A stretch of DNA of 64,000 nt from an uncultured cyanobacterium (GTDB lineage Bacteria > Cyanobacteriota > Cyanobacteriia > Cyanobacteriales > CAWCAG01): positions 427,108 through 491,107 of the forward strand of contig CAWDOD010000004.1 of assembly GCA_963803805.1 (NCBI GenBank), written 5' to 3'. The notes beneath the pieces were generated by a model that was not told the origin of the DNA, ran no database searches, and was given only the letters and a program-made list of their open reading frames with translations. The position numbers and the translations under genes were made by a program. This document shows, piece after piece, positions 2,703 to 62,443 of the stretch; the first letter of the stretch is position 1, and each line of letters opens with the position of its first letter.

Positions 2703-2720
2703 CTTTTTCCCCAGGAGAAT

Positions 2721-3725
2721 TTAAAGAGCAAAACCTAAAGCCTTTTTTACCCTAATCAGAGTTGCTTGTGCCACGGTTTCTGCTTTTTGTTGCCCTTCTT
2801 TTAAGATAGATTGCAAATAACCTTTCTCTTCTTTTATCTCTTGATACTTCTGTTGAATTGGTTGTAAAGTAGCAATAGTCGCTTCTGTTAATAGGGGTTT
2901 AAATTGTCCCCAACCCATACCTTCAGCTTCTGCTGCTACCGCTTCTTTAGTTTGATCAGAAAGTAAAGTATAAAGAGTTAAAAGATTATGACATTCTGGT
3001 CTTTCAGGATCATCAAAAGCTAAACCTTTAATGGGGTCAGTTTTTGAGCGTTTAACTTTTTTAGTGATTACTTCGGGAGGATCAAGAAGGTTAATGCGAC
3101 TTAAATCTGAAGGATCAGATTTAGACATCTTCTTTGTACCATCGCTTAAACTCATAATCCTCGCCCCTTCTTTACGGATCAAAGGTTCAGGAAGTTTTAA
3201 AACCGGCTGTTTTTTCTTACCAAAACGGTCATTAATTCTAATGGCAATGTCGCGAGTTAGTTCTAAATGCTGTTTTTGATCTTCCCCTACAGGTACTTTA
3301 TCTGTATCGTAAAGCAAAATATCCGCTGCCATCAGCACCGGATAATCTAACAAACCAACACTAACATTTTCCCCTTGCTTAAGGGCTTTTTCCTTAAACT
3401 GGATCATTCTTTCTAACCAGTTAAGGGGAGTAATGCAATTAAGTAACCAAGTTAACTCACTATGGGCAGTAACTTGAGATTGAATAAAAAAGGTTGAACA
3501 AGAAAGATCAATGCCACAAGCAAGACAAATAGCAGCAATATCTAATGTATCTTCTGCCAGACGTTTAGGATCATGGGGGACAGTAATCGCGTGTAAATCC
3601 ACCACACTAAAAAAGTTTTCATAATCACTCTGTAATTCAACCCAATTACGAATTGCTCCAAAATAGTTACCTAAATGGGGGTTTCCGGTAGGTTGAATGC
3701 CAGAAAATACTCGCTTTTTAGCCAT
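2721..3725 (-). CDS. trpS: tryptophan--tRNA ligase
   Basis: 334 aa. N-terminus SGIQPTGNPHLGNYFGA (HIGH-type class I motif) and KMSKS motif (KKMSKSDP). Confidence 0.95.
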   Translation of the reverse strand: MAKKRVFSGIQPTGNPHLGNYFGAIRNWVELQSDYENFFSVVDLHAITVPHDPKRLAEDTLDIAAICLACGIDLSCSTFFIQSQVTAHSELTWLLNCITPLNWLERMIQFKEKALKQGENVSVGLLDYPVLMAADILLYDTDKVPVGEDQKQHLELTRDIAIRINDRFGKKKQPVLKLPEPLIRKEGARIMSLSDGTKKMSKSDPSDLSRINLLDPPEVITKKVKRSKTDPIKGLAFDDPERPECHNLLTLYTLLSDQTKEAVAAEAEGMGWGQFKPLLTEATIATLQPIQQKYQEIKEEKGYLQSILKEGQQKAETVAQATLIRVKKALGFAL

Positions 3726-5154: not shown

Positions 5155-6645
5155 ATGGCATCCATTCGCGAGTTGCACAAACAACTGGTTCGTAAAGAAC
5201 GCTCAGCAGTTGAAGTTACCACAGAAACTTTAGAGCATATAAAGGCCTTAGAGCCGAAACTCCAAAGCTTTTTGTGTATAACAGCAGATTTAGCCCTAGA
5301 AACCGCAAAACAGGTGGATGCGAAAATTGCTGCTGGGGAAGAAATTAGCTTACTAGCAGGAATTCCCATTGGCATAAAAGACAATATGTGTACCCAAGGT
5401 ATTCCTACTACCTGCGCTTCCCAAATCTTAAAAAACTTTGTCCCTGCTTACGAATCAACAGTTACCCAAAAATTAAAGAATGCGGGGGCTGTTATGGTTG
5501 GCAAAACTAACTTAGATGAATTTGCCATGGGTAGTTCCACAGAAAACTCTGGCTACCAAACTACTAGCAATCCTTGGGATTTATCACGAGTACCAGGAGG
5601 CTCCTCTGGAGGCTCAGCAGCAGCCGTCGCTAGTCAAGAATGTGTGGTTGCCCTTGGTTCCGATACAGGTGGCTCCATTCGTCAGCCTGCCTCCCTGTGT
5701 GGGGTTATTGGCATGAAACCTACCTACGGTTTAGTTTCCCGTTACGGTTTAGTTGCCTATGCCTCTTCTTTAGATCAAATTGGTCCTTTAGCCACCTGCG
5801 TTGACGATGCAGCTATTTTATTGGGGGCGATCGCCGGTTACGATCCCATGGACTCCACTAGTTTAAAGGTGGAAATTCCCGACTATAGCAATTTGCTTAA
5901 ACCGAACTTTCAGCCTAAAGGAAGATTGAGAATTGGCGTAATTAAAGAAACCTTTGGTAGCGCCGTAGATTCAGCCGTAGAAGAAGCAGTCAAAACCGCT
6001 ATTGAGAAGTTGCAAGAATTAGGGGCAGAAATTCAAGTAATTTCCTGTCCTCGCTTTCGTTACGGCTTGCCAGCTTACTATATTATTGCCCCTAGTGAAG
6101 CCTCTGCTAACCTAGCCCGTTACGACGCTGTTAAATATGGCATACGCAGCGATGCAGACAATCTCCTTGATATGTATACCCAAACCAGGGCTGAAGGGTT
6201 TGGTACAGAAGTTAAACGGCGAATCATGCTCGGAACCTATGCCCTTTCTGCTGGTTATTATGATGCTTATTATCTCAAGGCCCAAAAAGTTCGTACCTTA
6301 ATTAAACAAGATTTTGAAGCAGCTTTTGAAAAGGTTGATATTTTGGTTTGTCCCACTTCTCCTACCACCGCCTTTAAAGCTGGGGAAAAAACCACCGATC
6401 CTCTAAGTATGTATGCCTCTGATCTGATGACAATTCCTGTTAATTTAGCAGGCTTACCTGCCCTCAGCATACCCTGTGGCTTTGATAAACAGGGATTGCC
6501 CATCGGGATGCAATTTATTGGTAAAGTGCTACGAGAAGATTTGTTACTGCAAGTTGCTTATGCCTATGAGCAATCTACGGATTGGCATTTTAGCAAAGCA
6601 CCTATTTCAATAATGCCTAACGGCAACGGCAAAGCCTTACAATGA
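5155..6645 (+). CDS. gatA: Asp/Glu-tRNA(Asn/Gln) amidotransferase subunit A
   Basis: 496 aa. Amidase signature region [12 protein letters not shown]...[12 protein letters not shown]. The last ~12 codons ([12 protein letters not shown]) and the stop lie inside dispersed repeat copy A. Confidence 0.95.
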
Positions 6646-6657
6646 TCATTGATTCAG
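6609..6657 (+). repeat. dispersed ~45-nt repeat, copy A (AATAATGCCTAACGGCAACGGCAAAGCCTTACAATGATCA...)
   Basis: Alignable by eye with 12331..12378, 17306..17351 and 48549..48600, all on the same strand. Confidence 0.55.
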
Positions 6658-12310: not shown

Positions 12311-12330
12311 GAGGGATAGTTATCAGTTAT

Positions 12331-12378
12331 CAATGATGCCTAACGGCAACGGCAAGCCGAACAATGATCAGTTACTAG
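12331..12378 (+). repeat. dispersed ~45-nt repeat, copy B (CAATGATGCCTAACGGCAACGGCAAGCCGAACAATGATCAGTTA)
   Basis: Closest to the consensus. Lies in the divergent speA / 12455 intergenic region. Confidence 0.55.
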
Positions 12379-14411: not shown

Positions 14412-14446
14412 TTGACTATTGACTATTGACTATTCCCTATTCCCTC
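14412..14446. repeat. STRR-like heptamer tract (TTGACTA x3, TTCCCTA, TTCCCTC)
   Basis: Tandem 7-mers between convergent genes. On the minus strand they encode the last residues (GIGNSQ) and the stop of the acetyltransferase. Confidence 0.7.
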
Positions 14447-15741: not shown

Positions 15742-15816
15742 TGATCATTTATCATTAATGATAGCTTTTCTTTCGTCTAAGCTAAGTAGTGCAAGATTCG
15801 ATTTACCCATTACCCA

Positions 15817-16323
15817 TTACTTATCCCCATTCCCACCACCTTGAATATGAACTAAATTATCAAGATTATCCCCATTGATTTTATAAGCAGCACCAAAACC
15901 AACTACAAATTTACCTTCCGTTGGAGTTAGTTGAAAAATACGAAAATCAGGTAAATCTCGGAAAACATTAATCAATTCTCCAAAGCGTTTCTCAAAAAGA
16001 TCAGCTAATTTATGCCACTCTTGGCTTTCCCTAATTATTAATTCCGCAATACAATCAAAAGTCAAGCGGCGACGAGCAAAAACTTGTTGACTTTTAGACT
16101 CATCCTCGATAAACATAACACTTACTTTACCAACAGCAGATAAATTGCGAGTATGGGTAGAAAGACCACTTACAAAAATATAAAAGTTTTTTGATTCATC
16201 TTCGACAAAAGGTGCATAACTAGCATTAGGTTTACCTTCCGTATTCACTGTACTAAGAATAATACTTTCAAACAAGCTGGTAAAATCTTGATAAGCAGCT
16301 TGTGCCTGTTTAATGTCGCTCAT
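15817..16323 (-). CDS. pyridoxamine 5'-phosphate oxidase-fold protein (HugZ/HutZ-like)
   Basis: 168 aa. Split-barrel-like pattern (ILSTVNTEGKPNASYAPF...FIFVSGLSTHTRNL). Function not assignable. Confidence 0.55.
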   Translation of the reverse strand: MSDIKQAQAAYQDFTSLFESIILSTVNTEGKPNASYAPFVEDESKNFYIFVSGLSTHTRNLSAVGKVSVMFIEDESKSQQVFARRRLTFDCIAELIIRESQEWHKLADLFEKRFGELINVFRDLPDFRIFQLTPTEGKFVVGFGAAYKINGDNLDNLVHIQGGGNGDK

Positions 16324-16428: not shown

Positions 16429-16737
16429 GTGTTTAAATTCCTCAACTCACTCCTCAACAGACATCCAGAACAAGTTAAAGCCAACGTAGAAATCTATACT
16501 TGGCAAACCTGTCCTTATTGTATTCGTGCCAAAATGCTTTTGTGGTGGAAAGGTGTTAACTTCACAGAATATAAAATTGACGGCAACGAAGAAGCAAGAA
16601 ACCAAATGGCCCAACGTGCCAACAATAAACGGAGTGTACCGCAGATTTTTATTAATAACCAACATATCGGTGGTTGTGATGATCTTTATGCTTTGGATAG
16701 TCAAGGAAAGTTACAACCTTTGTTGGCTGATAGCTAG
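16429..16737 (+). CDS. grxC: glutaredoxin (GrxC type)
   Basis: CPYC active site, SVPQIFI and GGCDDL motifs. The listed start is GTG, so the true start is uncertain. Confidence 0.85.
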   Translation: MFKFLNSLLNRHPEQVKANVEIYTWQTCPYCIRAKMLLWWKGVNFTEYKIDGNEEARNQMAQRANNKRSVPQIFINNQHIGGCDDLYALDSQGKLQPLLADS

Positions 16738-16825
16738 TTGCTAGTTGCTAATAGGAAACAGACTAAAGATAATACTTTTTCCCCATTTCCCCCTGCTGCC
16801 TACTCCCTACTCCCTTCCATTAAGT

Positions 16826-17311
16826 ATGATTCCTGATGAAGCCAGCTATTTAATTCATAGACGTTGGATGGGTAGGGCTTTGGAACTTGCTAAAGAAGCG
16901 GGTGAAGGGGGTGATGTACCTGTAGGTGCATTGGTAACAGATGGGGCAGGAAAACTGCTTGCCGAAGCTAGCAACCGTAAAGAACAAGATCAAGATCCTA
17001 CAGCACACGCAGAGATATTGGCTTTGCGTTCAGCCGCTTTAACTTTAGGTAACTGGCATCTTAACCAATGTACCCTATATGTGACCCTAGAACCTTGTCC
17101 TATGTGTGCTGGGGCAATTATTCAAGGACGGCTAGGTTTGCTCGTTTATGGGGCAGATGACCCCAAAACAGGAACCATTCGCACTGTTGCTAACTTTCCT
17201 GACAGTCCTTTCTCTAACCACCGTTTGTCCGTCATCGCTGGTGTCAGGGAAGCAGAATGCCGCAAGCAGCTAAAAAGTTGGTTTATGCAAAAGAGAATTA
17301 GTAATCAATAA
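16826..17311 (+). CDS. tadA: tRNA adenosine(34) deaminase
   Basis: CMP/dCMP deaminase zinc motifs HAE and PCPMCAGA. I prefer the ATG at 16826 (MIPDEASY) over the TTG at 16745. The stop lies inside dispersed repeat copy C. Confidence 0.85.
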   Translation: MIPDEASYLIHRRWMGRALELAKEAGEGGDVPVGALVTDGAGKLLAEASNRKEQDQDPTAHAEILALRSAALTLGNWHLNQCTLYVTLEPCPMCAGAIIQGRLGLLVYGADDPKTGTIRTVANFPDSPFSNHRLSVIAGVREAECRKQLKSWFMQKRISNQ

Positions 17312-17351
17312 TGCCTAACGGCAACTGTAAGCCGAACAGTTACCAGTTATC
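17306..17351 (+). repeat. dispersed ~45-nt repeat, copy C (CAATAATGCCTAACGGCAACTGTAAGCCGAACAGTTACCAGTTATC)
   Basis: Begins at the tadA stop codon, on the same strand as the other copies. Confidence 0.55.
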
Positions 17352-45666: not shown

Positions 45667-46686
45667 TTAGTTTTCTCGAATAATTAGAGTATACTTTCCC
45701 TTACTGCCGGACTCATAACTATTAACAATAATGCGATAGGTATCTTCTTTTGGTAAAGTAATCGTTAGCCGAGAATTTTTATTTTCGTTGCTAATATCGT
45801 CATTTTCGCCGATTACCTGATTATCAGAATTAACTATAGCTAAATAAGCATCAAAGTCTTCGCTTTTTAAGGAAATAGTTATTGATTGGGCTGTAGTTCC
45901 TAGAAAAGGATAACTATCATATAAACTGCTATCTGAACTAAGAGCGTTATCTCCTTCTTCTAAAGCTCCTTCTTTTACCATTAAAGGTAGGGAATCTTCA
46001 TAGCTTTGGGCATAAGCGATCGCACAGAGATTGCCAAAAACAGAATGAACATCACAAGCAACTCCTGTGGCACTGTAGTTTGGTTCAAGGATATTTTGTC
46101 GATGGATGCGGTTAGGAATACCATCATCAATAACCATCAACATAACAATATCCTGAGCGGAACTACCGCCGTAACTAATATTTTCTCCTCGCTTTCCTGT
46201 GACAATACCGTAGAGGGTAATCTTTTCCTCAAGTTTAATAGAATCCCTAGGTATCCCCTGATTCGTACTAATCCCTTCTTTTACCAAATCCTTTGCTGCC
46301 ATAGACATACCGTCAAACGTTGTTAAAGGCGGCAGAGGTTGCCTTTGGCGTAGTACGGTAATTGCTTCATCTAAAGCACTAACCCCTTCTTTTGTTAAGA
46401 CGATAGTACGACCAGGTATTCTTAATAAAGTATCGCTGTAATATTGTCTCATCTCCTCTAGCTGATCAGCATAAGCAGCCGGGTTTGTTCGTACCTGGTT
46501 AATTTGGGCAATAATTTCTTGCTCCAAAACTGATTGTATGATGGGGCTGACTCGTGTAGGATTCGGTATTTCGCTTTGTGCTATCACCTCCCTATCTTTT
46601 TCATTGGCGAAGGATGATGTAGCGTCGACTCCACCCCATAACAGGGAACTCACTAACAAGGTTGAAGATATTATTTTTAGCTGCAT
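45667..46686 (-). CDS. secreted CAP (SCP/PR-1) domain protein with C-terminal pre-peptidase (PPC)-like domain
   Basis: 339 aa. Signal peptide, CAP region INQVRTNPAAYA...HRQNIL, and a C-terminal beta-rich segment YTLIIRE. Confidence 0.65.
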   Translation of the reverse strand: MQLKIISSTLLVSSLLWGGVDATSSFANEKDREVIAQSEIPNPTRVSPIIQSVLEQEIIAQINQVRTNPAAYADQLEEMRQYYSDTLLRIPGRTIVLTKEGVSALDEAITVLRQRQPLPPLTTFDGMSMAAKDLVKEGISTNQGIPRDSIKLEEKITLYGIVTGKRGENISYGGSSAQDIVMLMVIDDGIPNRIHRQNILEPNYSATGVACDVHSVFGNLCAIAYAQSYEDSLPLMVKEGALEEGDNALSSDSSLYDSYPFLGTTAQSITISLKSEDFDAYLAIVNSDNQVIGENDDISNENKNSRLTITLPKEDTYRIIVNSYESGSKGKYTLIIREN

Positions 46687-46850: not shown

Positions 46851-46988
46851 ATGACAGTCAAATCCCAGCCAGTAAAACAGAGTAAGATTGAGATTGAAGT
46901 CAAAAATCTTGCCCCGGAAACTAATACAGATACCACCGTTAAAGGTTATCAAAGTGGAGCCTTTGATGGGGATGATGGCTCTGATTAG
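46851..46988 (+). CDS. candidate small ORF (45 aa), not in the supplied track
   Basis: ATG preceded by AAGAGG at -12. Product MTVKSQPVKQSKIEIEVKNLAPETNTDTTVKGYQSGAFDGDDGSD. No homology evidence available to me. Confidence 0.25.
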   Translation: MTVKSQPVKQSKIEIEVKNLAPETNTDTTVKGYQSGAFDGDDGSD

Positions 46989-47020: not shown

Positions 47021-47127
47021 TATAGCAATTATTAGTACCATGAGGTAAGCCTTAGACTCTATTTTTGCTAATAGCTAGTGGCGAATGGCTAATAGAAATG
47101 TACCTCCGCAGCTTGGGAATTGCTATA
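47021..47127. mobile_element. MITE-like hairpin element, copy 1
   Basis: Terminal inverted repeats TATAGCAATT / AATTGCTATA, inner pairing GAGGTA / TACCTC, degenerate GCTAATG-type heptamer core. Homologous to 62087..62196. Confidence 0.55.
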
Positions 47128-47243
47128 TGTCTTTTTTGGGGAAGTAAAATTGTTACAATTTTGCTTCCTTCCTTAGTTTAAGTAAAAGAGATAACTTAAT
47201 CTATTGCTGAAAAAGTATTTATAGCAATCATCCAAGAAATAAC

Positions 47244-48424
47244 ATGGAAAATCTCTCTATTAACTCTGTGATCGCAGAAATTTTATCTCCCTACGAATTA
47301 GTCGAATTTTTTGAGAAGTATTGGACGCAAAAGAGCATTTTTATTCCTAATAATGGTCGTCGCTTCAACCAGATTTTCTCCTGGCAAAAACTCAACCATT
47401 TACTTAACTTTCATGAGTTCGATTACCCCTCTCTACGTTTAGCTAAAAATGGAGAAGTTTTACCTCCGAAAGAAAACGCTCATTTCCTGAAACATTGTCA
47501 AGAGGGAGCAACTTTAATCATTGATCGTTTACACAAACTGGTTCCTGAAGTAGGGCGTTTTGCCGCAGCAATCAAAGATGATTTAGGTCATCCTTTACAA
47601 GTAAATATGTATTGTTCTTGCCCCAAGTACAGGGATTCAAGTGTCATTATGATACCCACGAAGTATTTATTTTACAAGTAGATGGCTGTAAACAATGGCA
47701 TATTTTTGCTGATACAGTTAAGTACCCTTTAAAAGAAGAGAAATCATCTGCTCATTGCCCCCCCGAAAGTGAACCTTATTTAAGCTGTATCCTCGAACCT
47801 GGGGATGTTCTCTATATTCCGAGAGGACATTGGCATTATGCTAAGACAGTAGATCAACCATCTTTACACCTTACTTTAGGGGTACATTGTTTAACGGGAA
47901 TAGACTTTTTGCAGTGGTTAACAAAACAGCTAAAGGAAGAACAAGAATGGCGAACTAATTTACCGGTGATTAATAATAACTGTTCTGTTTCTCTCAACAA
48001 ATACTTAGATAGTTTAACAGGGAGTTTAGCTAATTATTTACACACTAACAACTCTAGTGCTGAATATGCACAATATATAGCCAATTCAGAAAATCTCATT
48101 CCTAAGTATGCCTTTCCCTATCAAGCGGGCTACCAAATTTTTGCCCAAGGTATCAACACAAAGTTTATGCGTCCAAAGTACCAGCGATCGCAGATTATAG
48201 AATTACCAGGACAGCAAGGTTATAAAATTATAGTTTGGCACAAAGAAATCATCTTAAAAGGTGTCCCCAAATCTTTTGTTAATAAGTTATTTCATCAAGA
48301 AACTTTTACTGGTATAGATGTAGCCAGTTGGTTGTCAGAGGATTTTGATTGGGAAGTAGATATTGCCCCGACTCTACGGCGTTTAGTTACAGAAGGAATT
48401 ATTTTTGTTGTCAATGATGCCTAG
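47244..48424 (+). pseudogene. JmjC / cupin-4 family oxygenase, reading frame broken near 47610
   Basis: ORF 47244..47681 (N-terminal half) and ORF 47612..48424 (-1 frame) together form one cupin-4 protein. The Fe ligands HYD (CHYDTH) and RGHWHYA lie downstream of the break. Adding one base after 47611 gives NMYLFLPQVQGFKCHYDTH. Confidence 0.75.
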
Positions 48425-48459
48425 TAAGCTGGCAGGTATTTATATTGTCGATGGGGGGA

Positions 48460-48487
48460 GGTAATGGGTAATAGGTAATGGGTAAGA
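48460..48487. repeat. STRR-like heptamer tract (GGTAATG GGTAATA GGTAATG GGTAAGA)
   Basis: Read directly from the sequence, just after the cupin gene stop. Confidence 0.7.
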
Positions 48488-48548
48488 ATTACAGCTTATC
48501 ATCTTAGTTAATTCAACAATATAAGGCTTTGTGATCGCACAATTTTTT

Positions 48549-48600
48549 TGCCTACAAGTAACATAAAATACGGCAAGCCGAACATTGCTCAGTTATCAAT
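48549..48600 (+). repeat. dispersed ~45-nt repeat, copy D (interrupted: TGCCTA...CGGCAAGCCGAACATTGCTCAGTTATCAAT)
   Basis: The 3' half matches copies A-C. The 5' half is separated by about 16 unrelated nt. Confidence 0.45.
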
Positions 48601-60912: not shown

Positions 60913-61222
60913 GATGTTAAAAAAATGCGATCGGCAGGTAAATGGTTATTTCTGGTAAATCAGTCAGAATTGCGGTGATTTACCATTATAATCTGAATGC
61001 TTGCCTCTAATCTCAGCAAGGCTTAAAAAGTCCATCATCCGGAGAAAATTGCTTCCGAATCAGGTCAGTATATTTAACACTCAACTGCTACTCAATATGT
61101 ATCAATATCCCGAAAAATAAACCTTGACGTAGTACTCGTACAAATTCTAGAACTTACTCACAATATAGAAATAGTAAAATAACAACTATTGCTACTTACC
61201 TCAAATCTAGAGGACTTTCGCC

Positions 61223-62023
61223 ATGTTACAGTACGATTTGTCCCATCTTCCTACAGCAGAAGAATTACCTTCAGTTGACTTTGAACCTGTGGATAATGAA
61301 ATACAAAGGGCTGTCCCCTTTCTACTACAACAAATCCTCTTGTTTATCTGGCCAGAGCGAGAAGACTTTTTCTTTGGTATGGACATAGCCTATTACTATG
61401 ACTCAGCCCAACCAGCCATCTCTCCAGATGGGTTTTTGAGTATTGGTGTTAGAAAAAGGAAAAGCAAAACCAATAATCCTAACCAAGATGGACGTATTAG
61501 TTATCTGTTGTGGCAAGAAAACTATGTCGTTCCCACCTTGGTAATAGAATGTGTCTCTCAGAAATACCGAGGTGAGTACGATACTAAAAAAGATCAATAT
61601 GCCCAATTAGGAATACTTTACTATGTTATCTACGATGGTGGTCGCTACTACAGTGAAAAAGGGGCAAAGAGTAAAGGAGATCCTTTTGAAGTCCATCGCT
61701 TGGAAAATGGTGTCTATGTAAGGCAAGCAGGGGAACCGGTTTGGTTGCCGGAAGTTGGATTAGGAATAGGTAGAGAGCGTAGGGAGTTTAATACTTGGAC
61801 AAGGGAATGGTTGTATTGGTATAACGAGGAAGGGAAGCGTTATCCTTCTCCAGATGAAGCGTTTCAGATTGAAAGAGTTCGGGCTACCGAGGAAAGACTC
61901 AAAGCAGAGGAAGAAAGACTTAAAGCAGAGGAAGAAAGAATGAGGGCTGAACAACAAGAAGCTAGAGCAGAACTATTAGCAGCTAAATTACGGGAGTTAG
62001 GTATAGATCCAGAGCAACTTTAA
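61223..62023 (+). CDS. Uma2 (DUF820) family restriction-endonuclease-like protein
   Basis: 266 aa. Uma2 core (PTLVIECVS...) and the coiled-coil tail EERLKAEEERLKAEEER...LRELGIDPEQL. Confidence 0.75.
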   Translation: MLQYDLSHLPTAEELPSVDFEPVDNEIQRAVPFLLQQILLFIWPEREDFFFGMDIAYYYDSAQPAISPDGFLSIGVRKRKSKTNNPNQDGRISYLLWQENYVVPTLVIECVSQKYRGEYDTKKDQYAQLGILYYVIYDGGRYYSEKGAKSKGDPFEVHRLENGVYVRQAGEPVWLPEVGLGIGRERREFNTWTREWLYWYNEEGKRYPSPDEAFQIERVRATEERLKAEEERLKAEEERMRAEQQEARAELLAAKLRELGIDPEQL

Positions 62024-62086
62024 TTGAAGGATGCTTTTGTTGAGGGATAAATAATAATTATTCCTTCAAGCCTACTTAAGGAAAAA

Positions 62087-62196
62087 TATAGCAATTCTTG
62101 ATAGCATGAGGTACAGTCTAGACTTTGGTTTGTTGCTAATGGCTAATGGCTAATGGCTAATTGAAATGTACTTCACCAAGTGTGGGAATCGCTATA
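62087..62196. mobile_element. MITE-like hairpin element, copy 2
   Basis: TATAGCAATT / AATCGCTATA termini, inner GAGGTAC / GTACTTC pairing, four tandem GCTAATG/GCTAATT heptamers (62135..62162) at the core. Confidence 0.55.
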
Positions 62197-62443
62197 ACCC
62201 TCTTATGTCAGACTCCGATTTCTCCTGTTATTTGAACTTTCTGGACAAAGGCTATACTAAGGAGTACAGAGTTCGATGGGCGAATTTTAGCAATTTTGCT
62301 GCTGGCAAGAATTTTTAGTCAGAAAAAACAAGCGCGATTGCGCTCCGCGCACCAGCAGAGCTGATCGCATAATATACAAAAGCTCCAGGACTCAGAAATG
62401 ACTTTTGTTTCCAGAGAGTGACTAAAGAGGGATAAATGGCATT

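Follow-up and report, generated by a model that had tools for sequence, protein, structure and literature searches.

Two copies of a compact intergenic repeat, each bounded by inverted termini and centred on a run of heptamers, lie 15 kb apart in the 64-kb stretch of cyanobacterial DNA analysed here (hereafter the window; G+C 39.7%), and they raise the question of what this repeat is and how it came to be there. The initial annotation had offered two answers, a MITE of IS630/Tc1-mariner origin or a structured small RNA family, and had suggested that such an element might account for the spread of heptamer arrays. The ExbD encoded in the window shares 92-93% identity with proteins attributed to "Spirulinaceae cyanobacterium" MAGs.

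Alignment of the two ~108-bp copies (Table 1) confirmed that they match from end to end and carry the termini originally described, with 80% identity by blastn (E = 1e-17) and identity in 85 of 110 alignment columns (77%). Both begin with TATAGCAATT, and they end with AATTGCTATA in copy 1 and AATCGCTATA in copy 2. Further in, a second pair of blocks is formed by GAGGTA/TACCTC in copy 1 and by GAGGTAC/GTACTTC in copy 2, and the core of copy 1 (GCTAATAGCTAGTGGCGAATGGCTAAT) consists of degenerate heptamers. Similarity ends sharply at the terminal TATA, beyond which the flanks are unrelated. The longest ORF inside the element spans 38 aa, and all such ORFs are spurious. Searching the 64 kb with an nhmmer profile of the copy pair revealed no third full or partial copy, and a family TIR profile detected the four TIRs of copies 1 and 2 and none beyond; the TATAGCAATT decamer itself is mildly over-represented in the window, with 19 matches at up to one mismatch as compared to 9.7 expected.

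Both copies are intergenic and lie downstream of + strand genes, in gene contexts that differ entirely between the two loci. Copy 1 sits 33 bp past the stop codon of a conserved 45-aa ORF (46851-46988) and is followed after 10 bp by a terminator-like hairpin of 15 pairs (47138-47170), also conserved in a sister genome, the element having been inserted between the two. On the far side of this hairpin, a JmjC_2/cupin gene (47244-48424) is broken over two frames (47244-47681 and 47612-48424), and its counterpart in the sister genome is intact (392 aa; L125:1512-2690). The split in the window gene reflects a frameshift, decay into a pseudogene or an error of sequencing.

Table 1 Coordinates of the MITE copies, their TIRs and heptamer arrays in the window, and of a full-length relative.
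Feature	Position	Strand	Details
MITE copy 1	47021..47127	+	107 bp with both flanking TA; element proper 47023-47125, 103 bp
MITE copy 2	62087..62196	+	110 bp with both flanking TA
Copy 1 left TIR	47021..47048	+	Bipartite, TA+TAGCAATT-N8-CATGAGGTAA; family TIR profile E = 5.7e-5
Copy 1 right TIR	47100..47127	-	Reverse complement TATAGCAATTCCCAAGCTGCGGAGGTAC; family TIR profile E = 2.7e-4
Copy 2 left TIR	62087..62114	+	TATAGCAATTCTTGATAGCATGAGGTAC; family TIR profile E = 1.2e-5
Copy 2 right TIR	62168..62196	-	Reverse complement TATAGCGATTCCCACACTTGGTGAAGTAC; family TIR profile E = 5.4e-4
Copy 1 degenerate heptamer array	47067..47093	+	GCTAATA GCTAGTG GCGAATG GCTAAT; aligns column for column with the copy 2 array
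Copy 2 heptamer array	62135..62161	+	GCTAATG x3.9, 100% matches (TRF)
Full-length IS, Crocosphaera chwakensis	L025:4369-5402		1,034 bp; ends TATAGCATTTCCCTGACTCATGAGGTAC / GTACCTCATGACTATGGGAATTGCTATA

A scan of one genome per prokaryotic species for the pattern TATAGCAATT-N6-10-CATGAGGTA returned at least 117 loci, of which at least 113 are cyanobacterial and come from ~40 genomes, often with many loci per genome. The orders Oscillatoriales, Chroococcales, Pleurocapsales, Nostocales and Synechococcales are all represented, and the signature occurs in Moorena, Laspinema, Okeania, Symploca, Crocosphaera, Microcystis and Halothece, as well as in Pleurocapsales and Nostocales. The ~4 non-cyanobacterial matches comprise one contig labelled "uncultured bacterium" and matches in Arcobacteraceae, Flavobacteriaceae and Chloroflexota, which have an odd spacing and look like chance. 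When TIR-profile matches were paired across 800 kb of these loci, two length classes were revealed: at least 60 short elements of 90-211 bp with a mode of 105-110 bp, at which both window copies fall, and at least 9 long elements of 816-1038 bp. Each TIR is ~28 bp long and bipartite, with conserved blocks at positions 1-10 and 19-28 (TAGCAATT and CATGAGGTAC, ~8 bp apart), and the short class has the layout TATAGCAATT-N8-CATGAGGTAC, a variable core and GTACCTCA-N8-GAGAAaCGCTATA. The right-arm consensus, which was not fixed by the search pattern, reads TATAGCgTTTcTc...tt.gTGAgGTAc, and the GTACCTC/GTACTTC difference between the window copies is a common right-arm variant in the family. The window TIRs match the family TIR profile with E = 1e-5 to 5e-4.

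Scanning metagenomes with a strict subfamily pattern (TIR + TAGACT) gave 0 matches, while the array/TIR junction ATGGCTAATNGAAATGTAC gave 9, of which 8 look like chance and the ninth (L139) belongs to the family but has another core. A scan of viral contigs gave 0 matches. A literal literature search for TATAGCAATT returned irrelevant matches only, and our search, which did not extend to ISfinder and several key papers, found no published account of the terminal signature or of heptamer-bearing cores. Two further arrangements were observed among the listed loci. In many Moorena, Laspinema and Oscillatoria members (e.g. L001, L013, L020) the core holds nested GGGGGA...TCCCCC palindromic units in place of heptamers, such as GGATCCCCCTAAATCCCCCTTAAAAAGGGGGACTTTGAGG; these units, which are sometimes duplicated, have the look of a distinct and very small repeat carried within the MITE. 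Elements also occur head to tail with shared or abutting TATA ends (GCTATAGCAATT, GCTATATATAGCAATT; L016 ~5677-5704 on the - strand, and the right flanks of L013 and L107), which suggests that one copy was inserted beside, or into, the TA that flanks another.

The long class encodes a transposase. After the same 28 bases, long elements contain an opposite-strand coding sequence ending ...IRNWFTHCCYCTS*, with its stop codon within CATGAGGTA, and full elements of ~1,031 bp encode a two-ORF IS630-family transposase of the DDE_3 type. In the Crocosphaera chwakensis IS (L025; Table 1), orfA has HTH_32 and PAX-like (paired-box) matches, and orfB matches DDE_3 (E = 4e-36) and the NCBIfam model NF033545 "IS630 family transposase" (111 bits against a cutoff of 100); the two ORFs overlap at an A8 slippery run and the stop codon lies within the right TIR. 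An IS630 transposase abuts the terminus at 24 loci among the at least 117 listed. Related genes, annotated by PGAP as "IS630 family transposase", lie on Nostoc and Oscillatoria plasmids, and the copy on the Nostoc punctiforme plasmid pNPUN03, with 55% identity at the protein level, has the ends TATAGCGGTTCCCGGTCTACTGAGGTAC / GTACCTCACTAGACTAGTAAACGCTATA. The copy 1 left TIR matches the ends of the IS630-family ISs in L025 and L141. An IS630-type transposase with matching TIRs, as the MITE proposal called for, is thus present in other cyanobacteria, and the reported absence of a transposase gene from the window holds: tblastn with the family transposase found no homologue in the 64 kb. A PDB sequence search with the same protein gave no match. 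A full-length family IS in a Pleurocapsa MAG (L103 ~2710-3018) has a short insert, CCTAAAGGATTAGCTTCGCGTCAC, that breaks the 3' end of its transposase gene; the same insert recurs in the cores of MITEs from other genomes (L019, L082).

We then considered the flanking TA, which had been read as a target duplication. The terminal TA is invariant in 46 elements, while the bases just outside TATAGC...GCTATA vary freely, as expected if TA is the duplicated target. A sister genome (ERZ25039505 contig_4227 = MFD03250.bin.1.162; L125, also L126/L127) provided an empty site for copy 1. The sister locus (L125/L126) keeps the 45-aa ORF, the JmjC gene and the terminator-like hairpin, and homologues of the nearby CAP/PPC protein of the window (45667-46686), one of them encoded in this sister, are 72-74% identical. 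Once 47023-47127 is taken out of the window (105 bp, i.e. the 103-bp element plus one TA), the remaining sequence aligns gaplessly with the sister, whereas taking out 107 bp would need a 2-nt gap. The junction sequences are GATTCA-TA-TGTCTT in the window and GATTAA-AA-TGTCTC in the sister, so that the target dinucleotide of the sister is AA and not TA. A substitution would be unsurprising at such divergence, and the duplication of TA is supported by the length fit and by precedent in the family rather than by an identical target. Blasting reconstructed empty sites for the at least 117 loci found no more filled/empty pairs.

In the sisters L118, L119 and L142 a sulfite-reductase gene lies directly beside exbD, and a ~1.4-kb stretch with a 266-aa gene and copy 2 is absent or diverged; the surrounding intergenic DNA has diverged as well, and no clean empty-site junction for copy 2 was found in these sisters. 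The corresponding part of the window (~60998-62440) holds the 266-aa gene (61223-62023), a 21-bp x2.3 repeat at 61892-61939 and copy 2, and may be an inserted block.

Before turning to mechanism, other explanations of the two copies must be weighed. Their number and proximity, two copies just 15 kb apart, might suggest that chance or a local segmental duplication made them alike. We give this practically no credence: the blastn match between them is far too strong for chance (E = 1e-17), identity breaks off at both TATA termini with unrelated flanks, which speaks against chance and segmental duplication alike, and the same bounded unit is found in many unrelated genomes. The small RNA proposal, by which the copies would be genes or motifs of a structured RNA family with pairings that are helices under selection, draws on the long hairpin that both copies can form, with the terminal 10-bp pairing at its base, on their intergenic position downstream of + strand genes, and on the fold of the copy 2 + strand (z = -1.97 against shuffled sequence). 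The other three strand/copy combinations, however, differ from shuffles by about one standard deviation or less (z = -0.59, -1.07 and -1.29); Rfam, at the gathering score and at E <= 1, returned nothing but a meaningless 20.6-bit plant miRNA match; and no promoter-like site adjoins copy 1 or copy 2. The same ends, moreover, flank a transposase gene in the full-length elements. Comparison of the arms of 46 elements bears most directly on the claim of selected helices. The reverse complement of an element's own right arm matches its left arm no better than that of a random partner, with identities at the variable positions 11-20 of 0.09-0.85 for true partners and 0.12-0.69 for random ones, position 12 being the sole clear excess for true partners (0.85 vs 0.69); the left arms of this set were fixed by the search pattern, so that their conservation is partly ascertainment, and the right arms were loosely constrained. 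Essentially equal identity with true and random partners indicates that each arm is conserved with no compensatory covariation, which is how transposase-binding sites behave and not how RNA helices do. The inner pairing, described earlier as maintained through a G-U change, was therefore rejected as RNA-type pairing; it is the inner block of the ~28-bp bipartite TIR. A structured small RNA family is, on this evidence, very improbable.

Two further alternatives accept that the copies are MITEs. In one, the host has exapted them as a 3'-UTR stabiliser, terminator or regulatory site and retains them for that function. Lying 33 bp past the end of the 45-aa ORF, with the conserved terminator-like hairpin starting 10 bp beyond it, copy 1 would be co-transcribed, and such roles have been reported for ERIC and Correia elements (PMC3184786). 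Against this, the orthologous site in the sister genome is empty, the copies differ by ~20%, core included, and no gene context is common to the two loci; we consider exaptation improbable, if less so than the small RNA. In the other, the repeats are not derived from IS630 and represent another MITE family of cyanobacteria, for instance the ISNpu3-related Nezha, which is found in Anabaena and Nostoc, is ~130-170 bp long and has TIRs and a stable hairpin (PMC3184786). The reference copy of Nezha carries a 10-bp direct repeat, CATTATCTAC (PMC6042816), whereas here TA alone is repeated and the bases outside it are variable, and the window ends match an IS630-family IS. Judged from its description, membership in Nezha was rejected (PMC6042816), and we hold an origin of this sort to be highly improbable.

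The IS630-derived MITE is thus the reading that we retain. Long and short elements with common termini give the classical picture of an autonomous IS plus its MITEs: full-length ISs share their termini with dozens of elements that have no transposase and no coding capacity, and one of the insertions in the window has an empty counterpart. The window element accordingly shows the features of a type I MITE of IS630/Tc1-mariner derivation, namely TIRs matching an IS630 IS, TA flanks, small size with no transposase, dispersed copies and, for copy 1, an empty site. We regard it as very likely that the repeats of the window are a decayed, non-autonomous MITE from an IS630/Tc1-mariner sub-lineage that is widespread in cyanobacteria. 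In the mechanism that we propose, the two TIR blocks would be recognised by the paired helix-turn-helix domain at the N-terminus of the cognate transposase, and this enzyme, encoded at another locus, would release the element in a cut-and-paste reaction and so mobilise it in trans. The excised element would then be inserted at a TA dinucleotide, which would become duplicated and so leave an invariant TA on each side. The window's genome would have, or would formerly have had, an autonomous partner, and the ~50-bp core would be unconstrained filler between two ~28-bp ends. The ~20% divergence between the copies gives no sign of recent activity and suggests that copies 1 and 2 are old insertions.

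What remains is the heptamer core, and the proposal that MITEs and STRR-like arrays are linked. In the window copies, the core arrays consist of four units each and are in register, which indicates that the array was already present in their common ancestor; that of copy 1, with its four degenerate units, falls below the TRF threshold. The association recurs elsewhere in the family with other units: GGGAGCA and GGCAAGA in Moorena, GGGAACA in Okeania, CCTATTC in Symploca and Caldora, CTCCCTG in the sister genome and CCCTTTC in a freshwater MAG, while some subfamilies carry GGGGG/CCCCC palindromic units in place of heptamers. Unit number varies greatly among related Moorena elements, and between Moorena and Okeania elements of one subfamily, and is constant between the two window copies and among Symploca/Caldora copies. 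Period-7 repeats are abundant in general: they make up 17 of the 43 TRF rows of the window, nearly all of them outside the MITE copies, and 227 of the ~310 TRF rows with at least 3 copies across the 800 kb of listed loci. At these loci, array density is 3.05 per kb in cores and 1.00 per kb in other non-ORF DNA, and 14 of 219 arrays lie within recognised elements, leaving 94% outside; the core units of Moorena are also found outside elements. The suggested link is genuine but limited: it recurs in several subfamilies with a ~3-fold enrichment in cores, yet most arrays lie outside elements.

That the unconstrained cores of IS630-lineage MITEs, lying between ends able to form hairpins, are preferred sites for the birth and expansion of STRR-like arrays, which they then seed at new intergenic sites and in new genomes, could be argued from the at least 5 subfamilies that have different units in different taxa, from the ~3-fold higher array density in cores and from the large differences in unit number between Moorena and Okeania. 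We nonetheless think it unlikely. Since 94% of arrays lie outside elements and units are shared with arrays outside, generation in situ by a genome-wide process fits the data at least as well, and MITEs are not favoured as the main source of arrays. A survey of G-rich heptamers in Nostoc reported no general association with mobile elements (PMC4692102). In our reading, arrays arise and grow wherever the non-coding DNA of these genomes is free of constraint, with some preference for MITE cores, and when an element transposes, its array is copied to the new site as a by-product. Among the period-7 arrays of the window (e.g. 14412-14445, 15803-15820, 16733-16815 and 48460-48485), units such as GCTAGTT and GGTAATG resemble the MITE core unit GCTAATG. 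The window also contains a second dispersed repeat of ~45-53 nt, TCAATGATGCCTAACGGCAACGGCAAGCCGAACAATGATCAGTTA (6607-6650, 12322-12374, 17297-17349), mostly at gene ends; at 48413-48595 it is split into halves ~140 bp apart with a GGTAATG x3.7 array between them.

The element of the window is one more IS630-derived MITE, that is, mobile DNA of an ordinary kind with its heptamer repeat as a mild curiosity, and, abundant as IS630 elements and MITEs are already known to be in this phylum, a single case matters little by itself. Its terminal signature, TA|TAGCAATT-N8-CATGAGGTAC, identifies one IS630 sub-lineage together with its MITEs across many cyanobacterial orders and should be useful for repeat annotation and for the assembly of cyanobacterial MAGs. 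Copy 1 and its empty counterpart form a clean pair with which insertions could be dated in a Spirulinaceae-like lineage that has received little study. That heptamer arrays travel within transposon ends in several lineages is a small lead on the distribution of STRR-like arrays; if an origin in MITE cores were true, it would offer a partial route for their unexplained origin and spread, also by way of plasmid-borne parent ISs.

Among known systems, MITEs derived from Tc1/mariner elements, such as Stowaway of plants, are ~100 bp long, intergenic and non-coding, with TIRs taken from an autonomous element, a TA duplication and the capacity to form a hairpin. The window element has its size, TIRs, TA duplication, absence of coding sequence, intergenic position and hairpin potential in common with these and with the type I MITEs of prokaryotes; unlike Tc1/mariner MITEs in general, its lineage is cyanobacterial, with a TIR sequence of its own and a core of tandem heptamers. 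With the IS630/Tc1-mariner ISs of cyanobacteria it shares TA on both flanks and termini of the type found on elements with an HTH + DDE_3 transposase, from which it differs in lacking the transposase and in length (~105 bp as compared to ~1,030 bp). The cores of the window resemble STRR heptamer arrays in being built of tandem 7-nt units in 3 or more copies (x3.9 in copy 2). Mazel et al. are said to have described the classical STRR units in 1990, reportedly CCCCAGT, TTGGTCA and CAACAGT; GCTAATG is not known to be among the classical units, for which reason we call the core STRR-like, and the array here is embedded between transposon ends. Further afield, the Correia elements of Neisseria and the MITE-like units of Thiomargarita, which belong to other phyla and are likened here by description, may be related: they resemble the window element in their TA flanks, TATAG... 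termini and length of ~100-150 bp. The units of Thiomargarita are TATAG-ended and TA-flanked (PMC4853749).

Nezha of Anabaena variabilis and Nostoc PCC 7120 is likewise a cyanobacterial MITE, of similar size, bounded by TIRs and represented by empty and filled sites in relatives (PMC3184786); it has a 10-bp direct repeat and ISNpu3-type TIRs where the window element has a TA repeat and IS630-type TIRs. ISY100 of Synechocystis PCC 6803 is the cyanobacterial IS630 member that has been studied biochemically, and its TIR of 24 bp is comparable in length to the ~28 bp found here (PMC2170065). Its transposase binds the TIRs via two N-terminal HTH motifs and requires no other protein, 30 bp from either terminus are enough for transposition, and cut-and-paste insertion takes place into TA with duplication, 2 of 39 insertions having gone into AA/TT (PMC2170065). 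Both IS630 elements and MITEs have been amply described from cyanobacteria (PMC2779907, PMC3542288, PMC2246112), and the repeats of the window join them.
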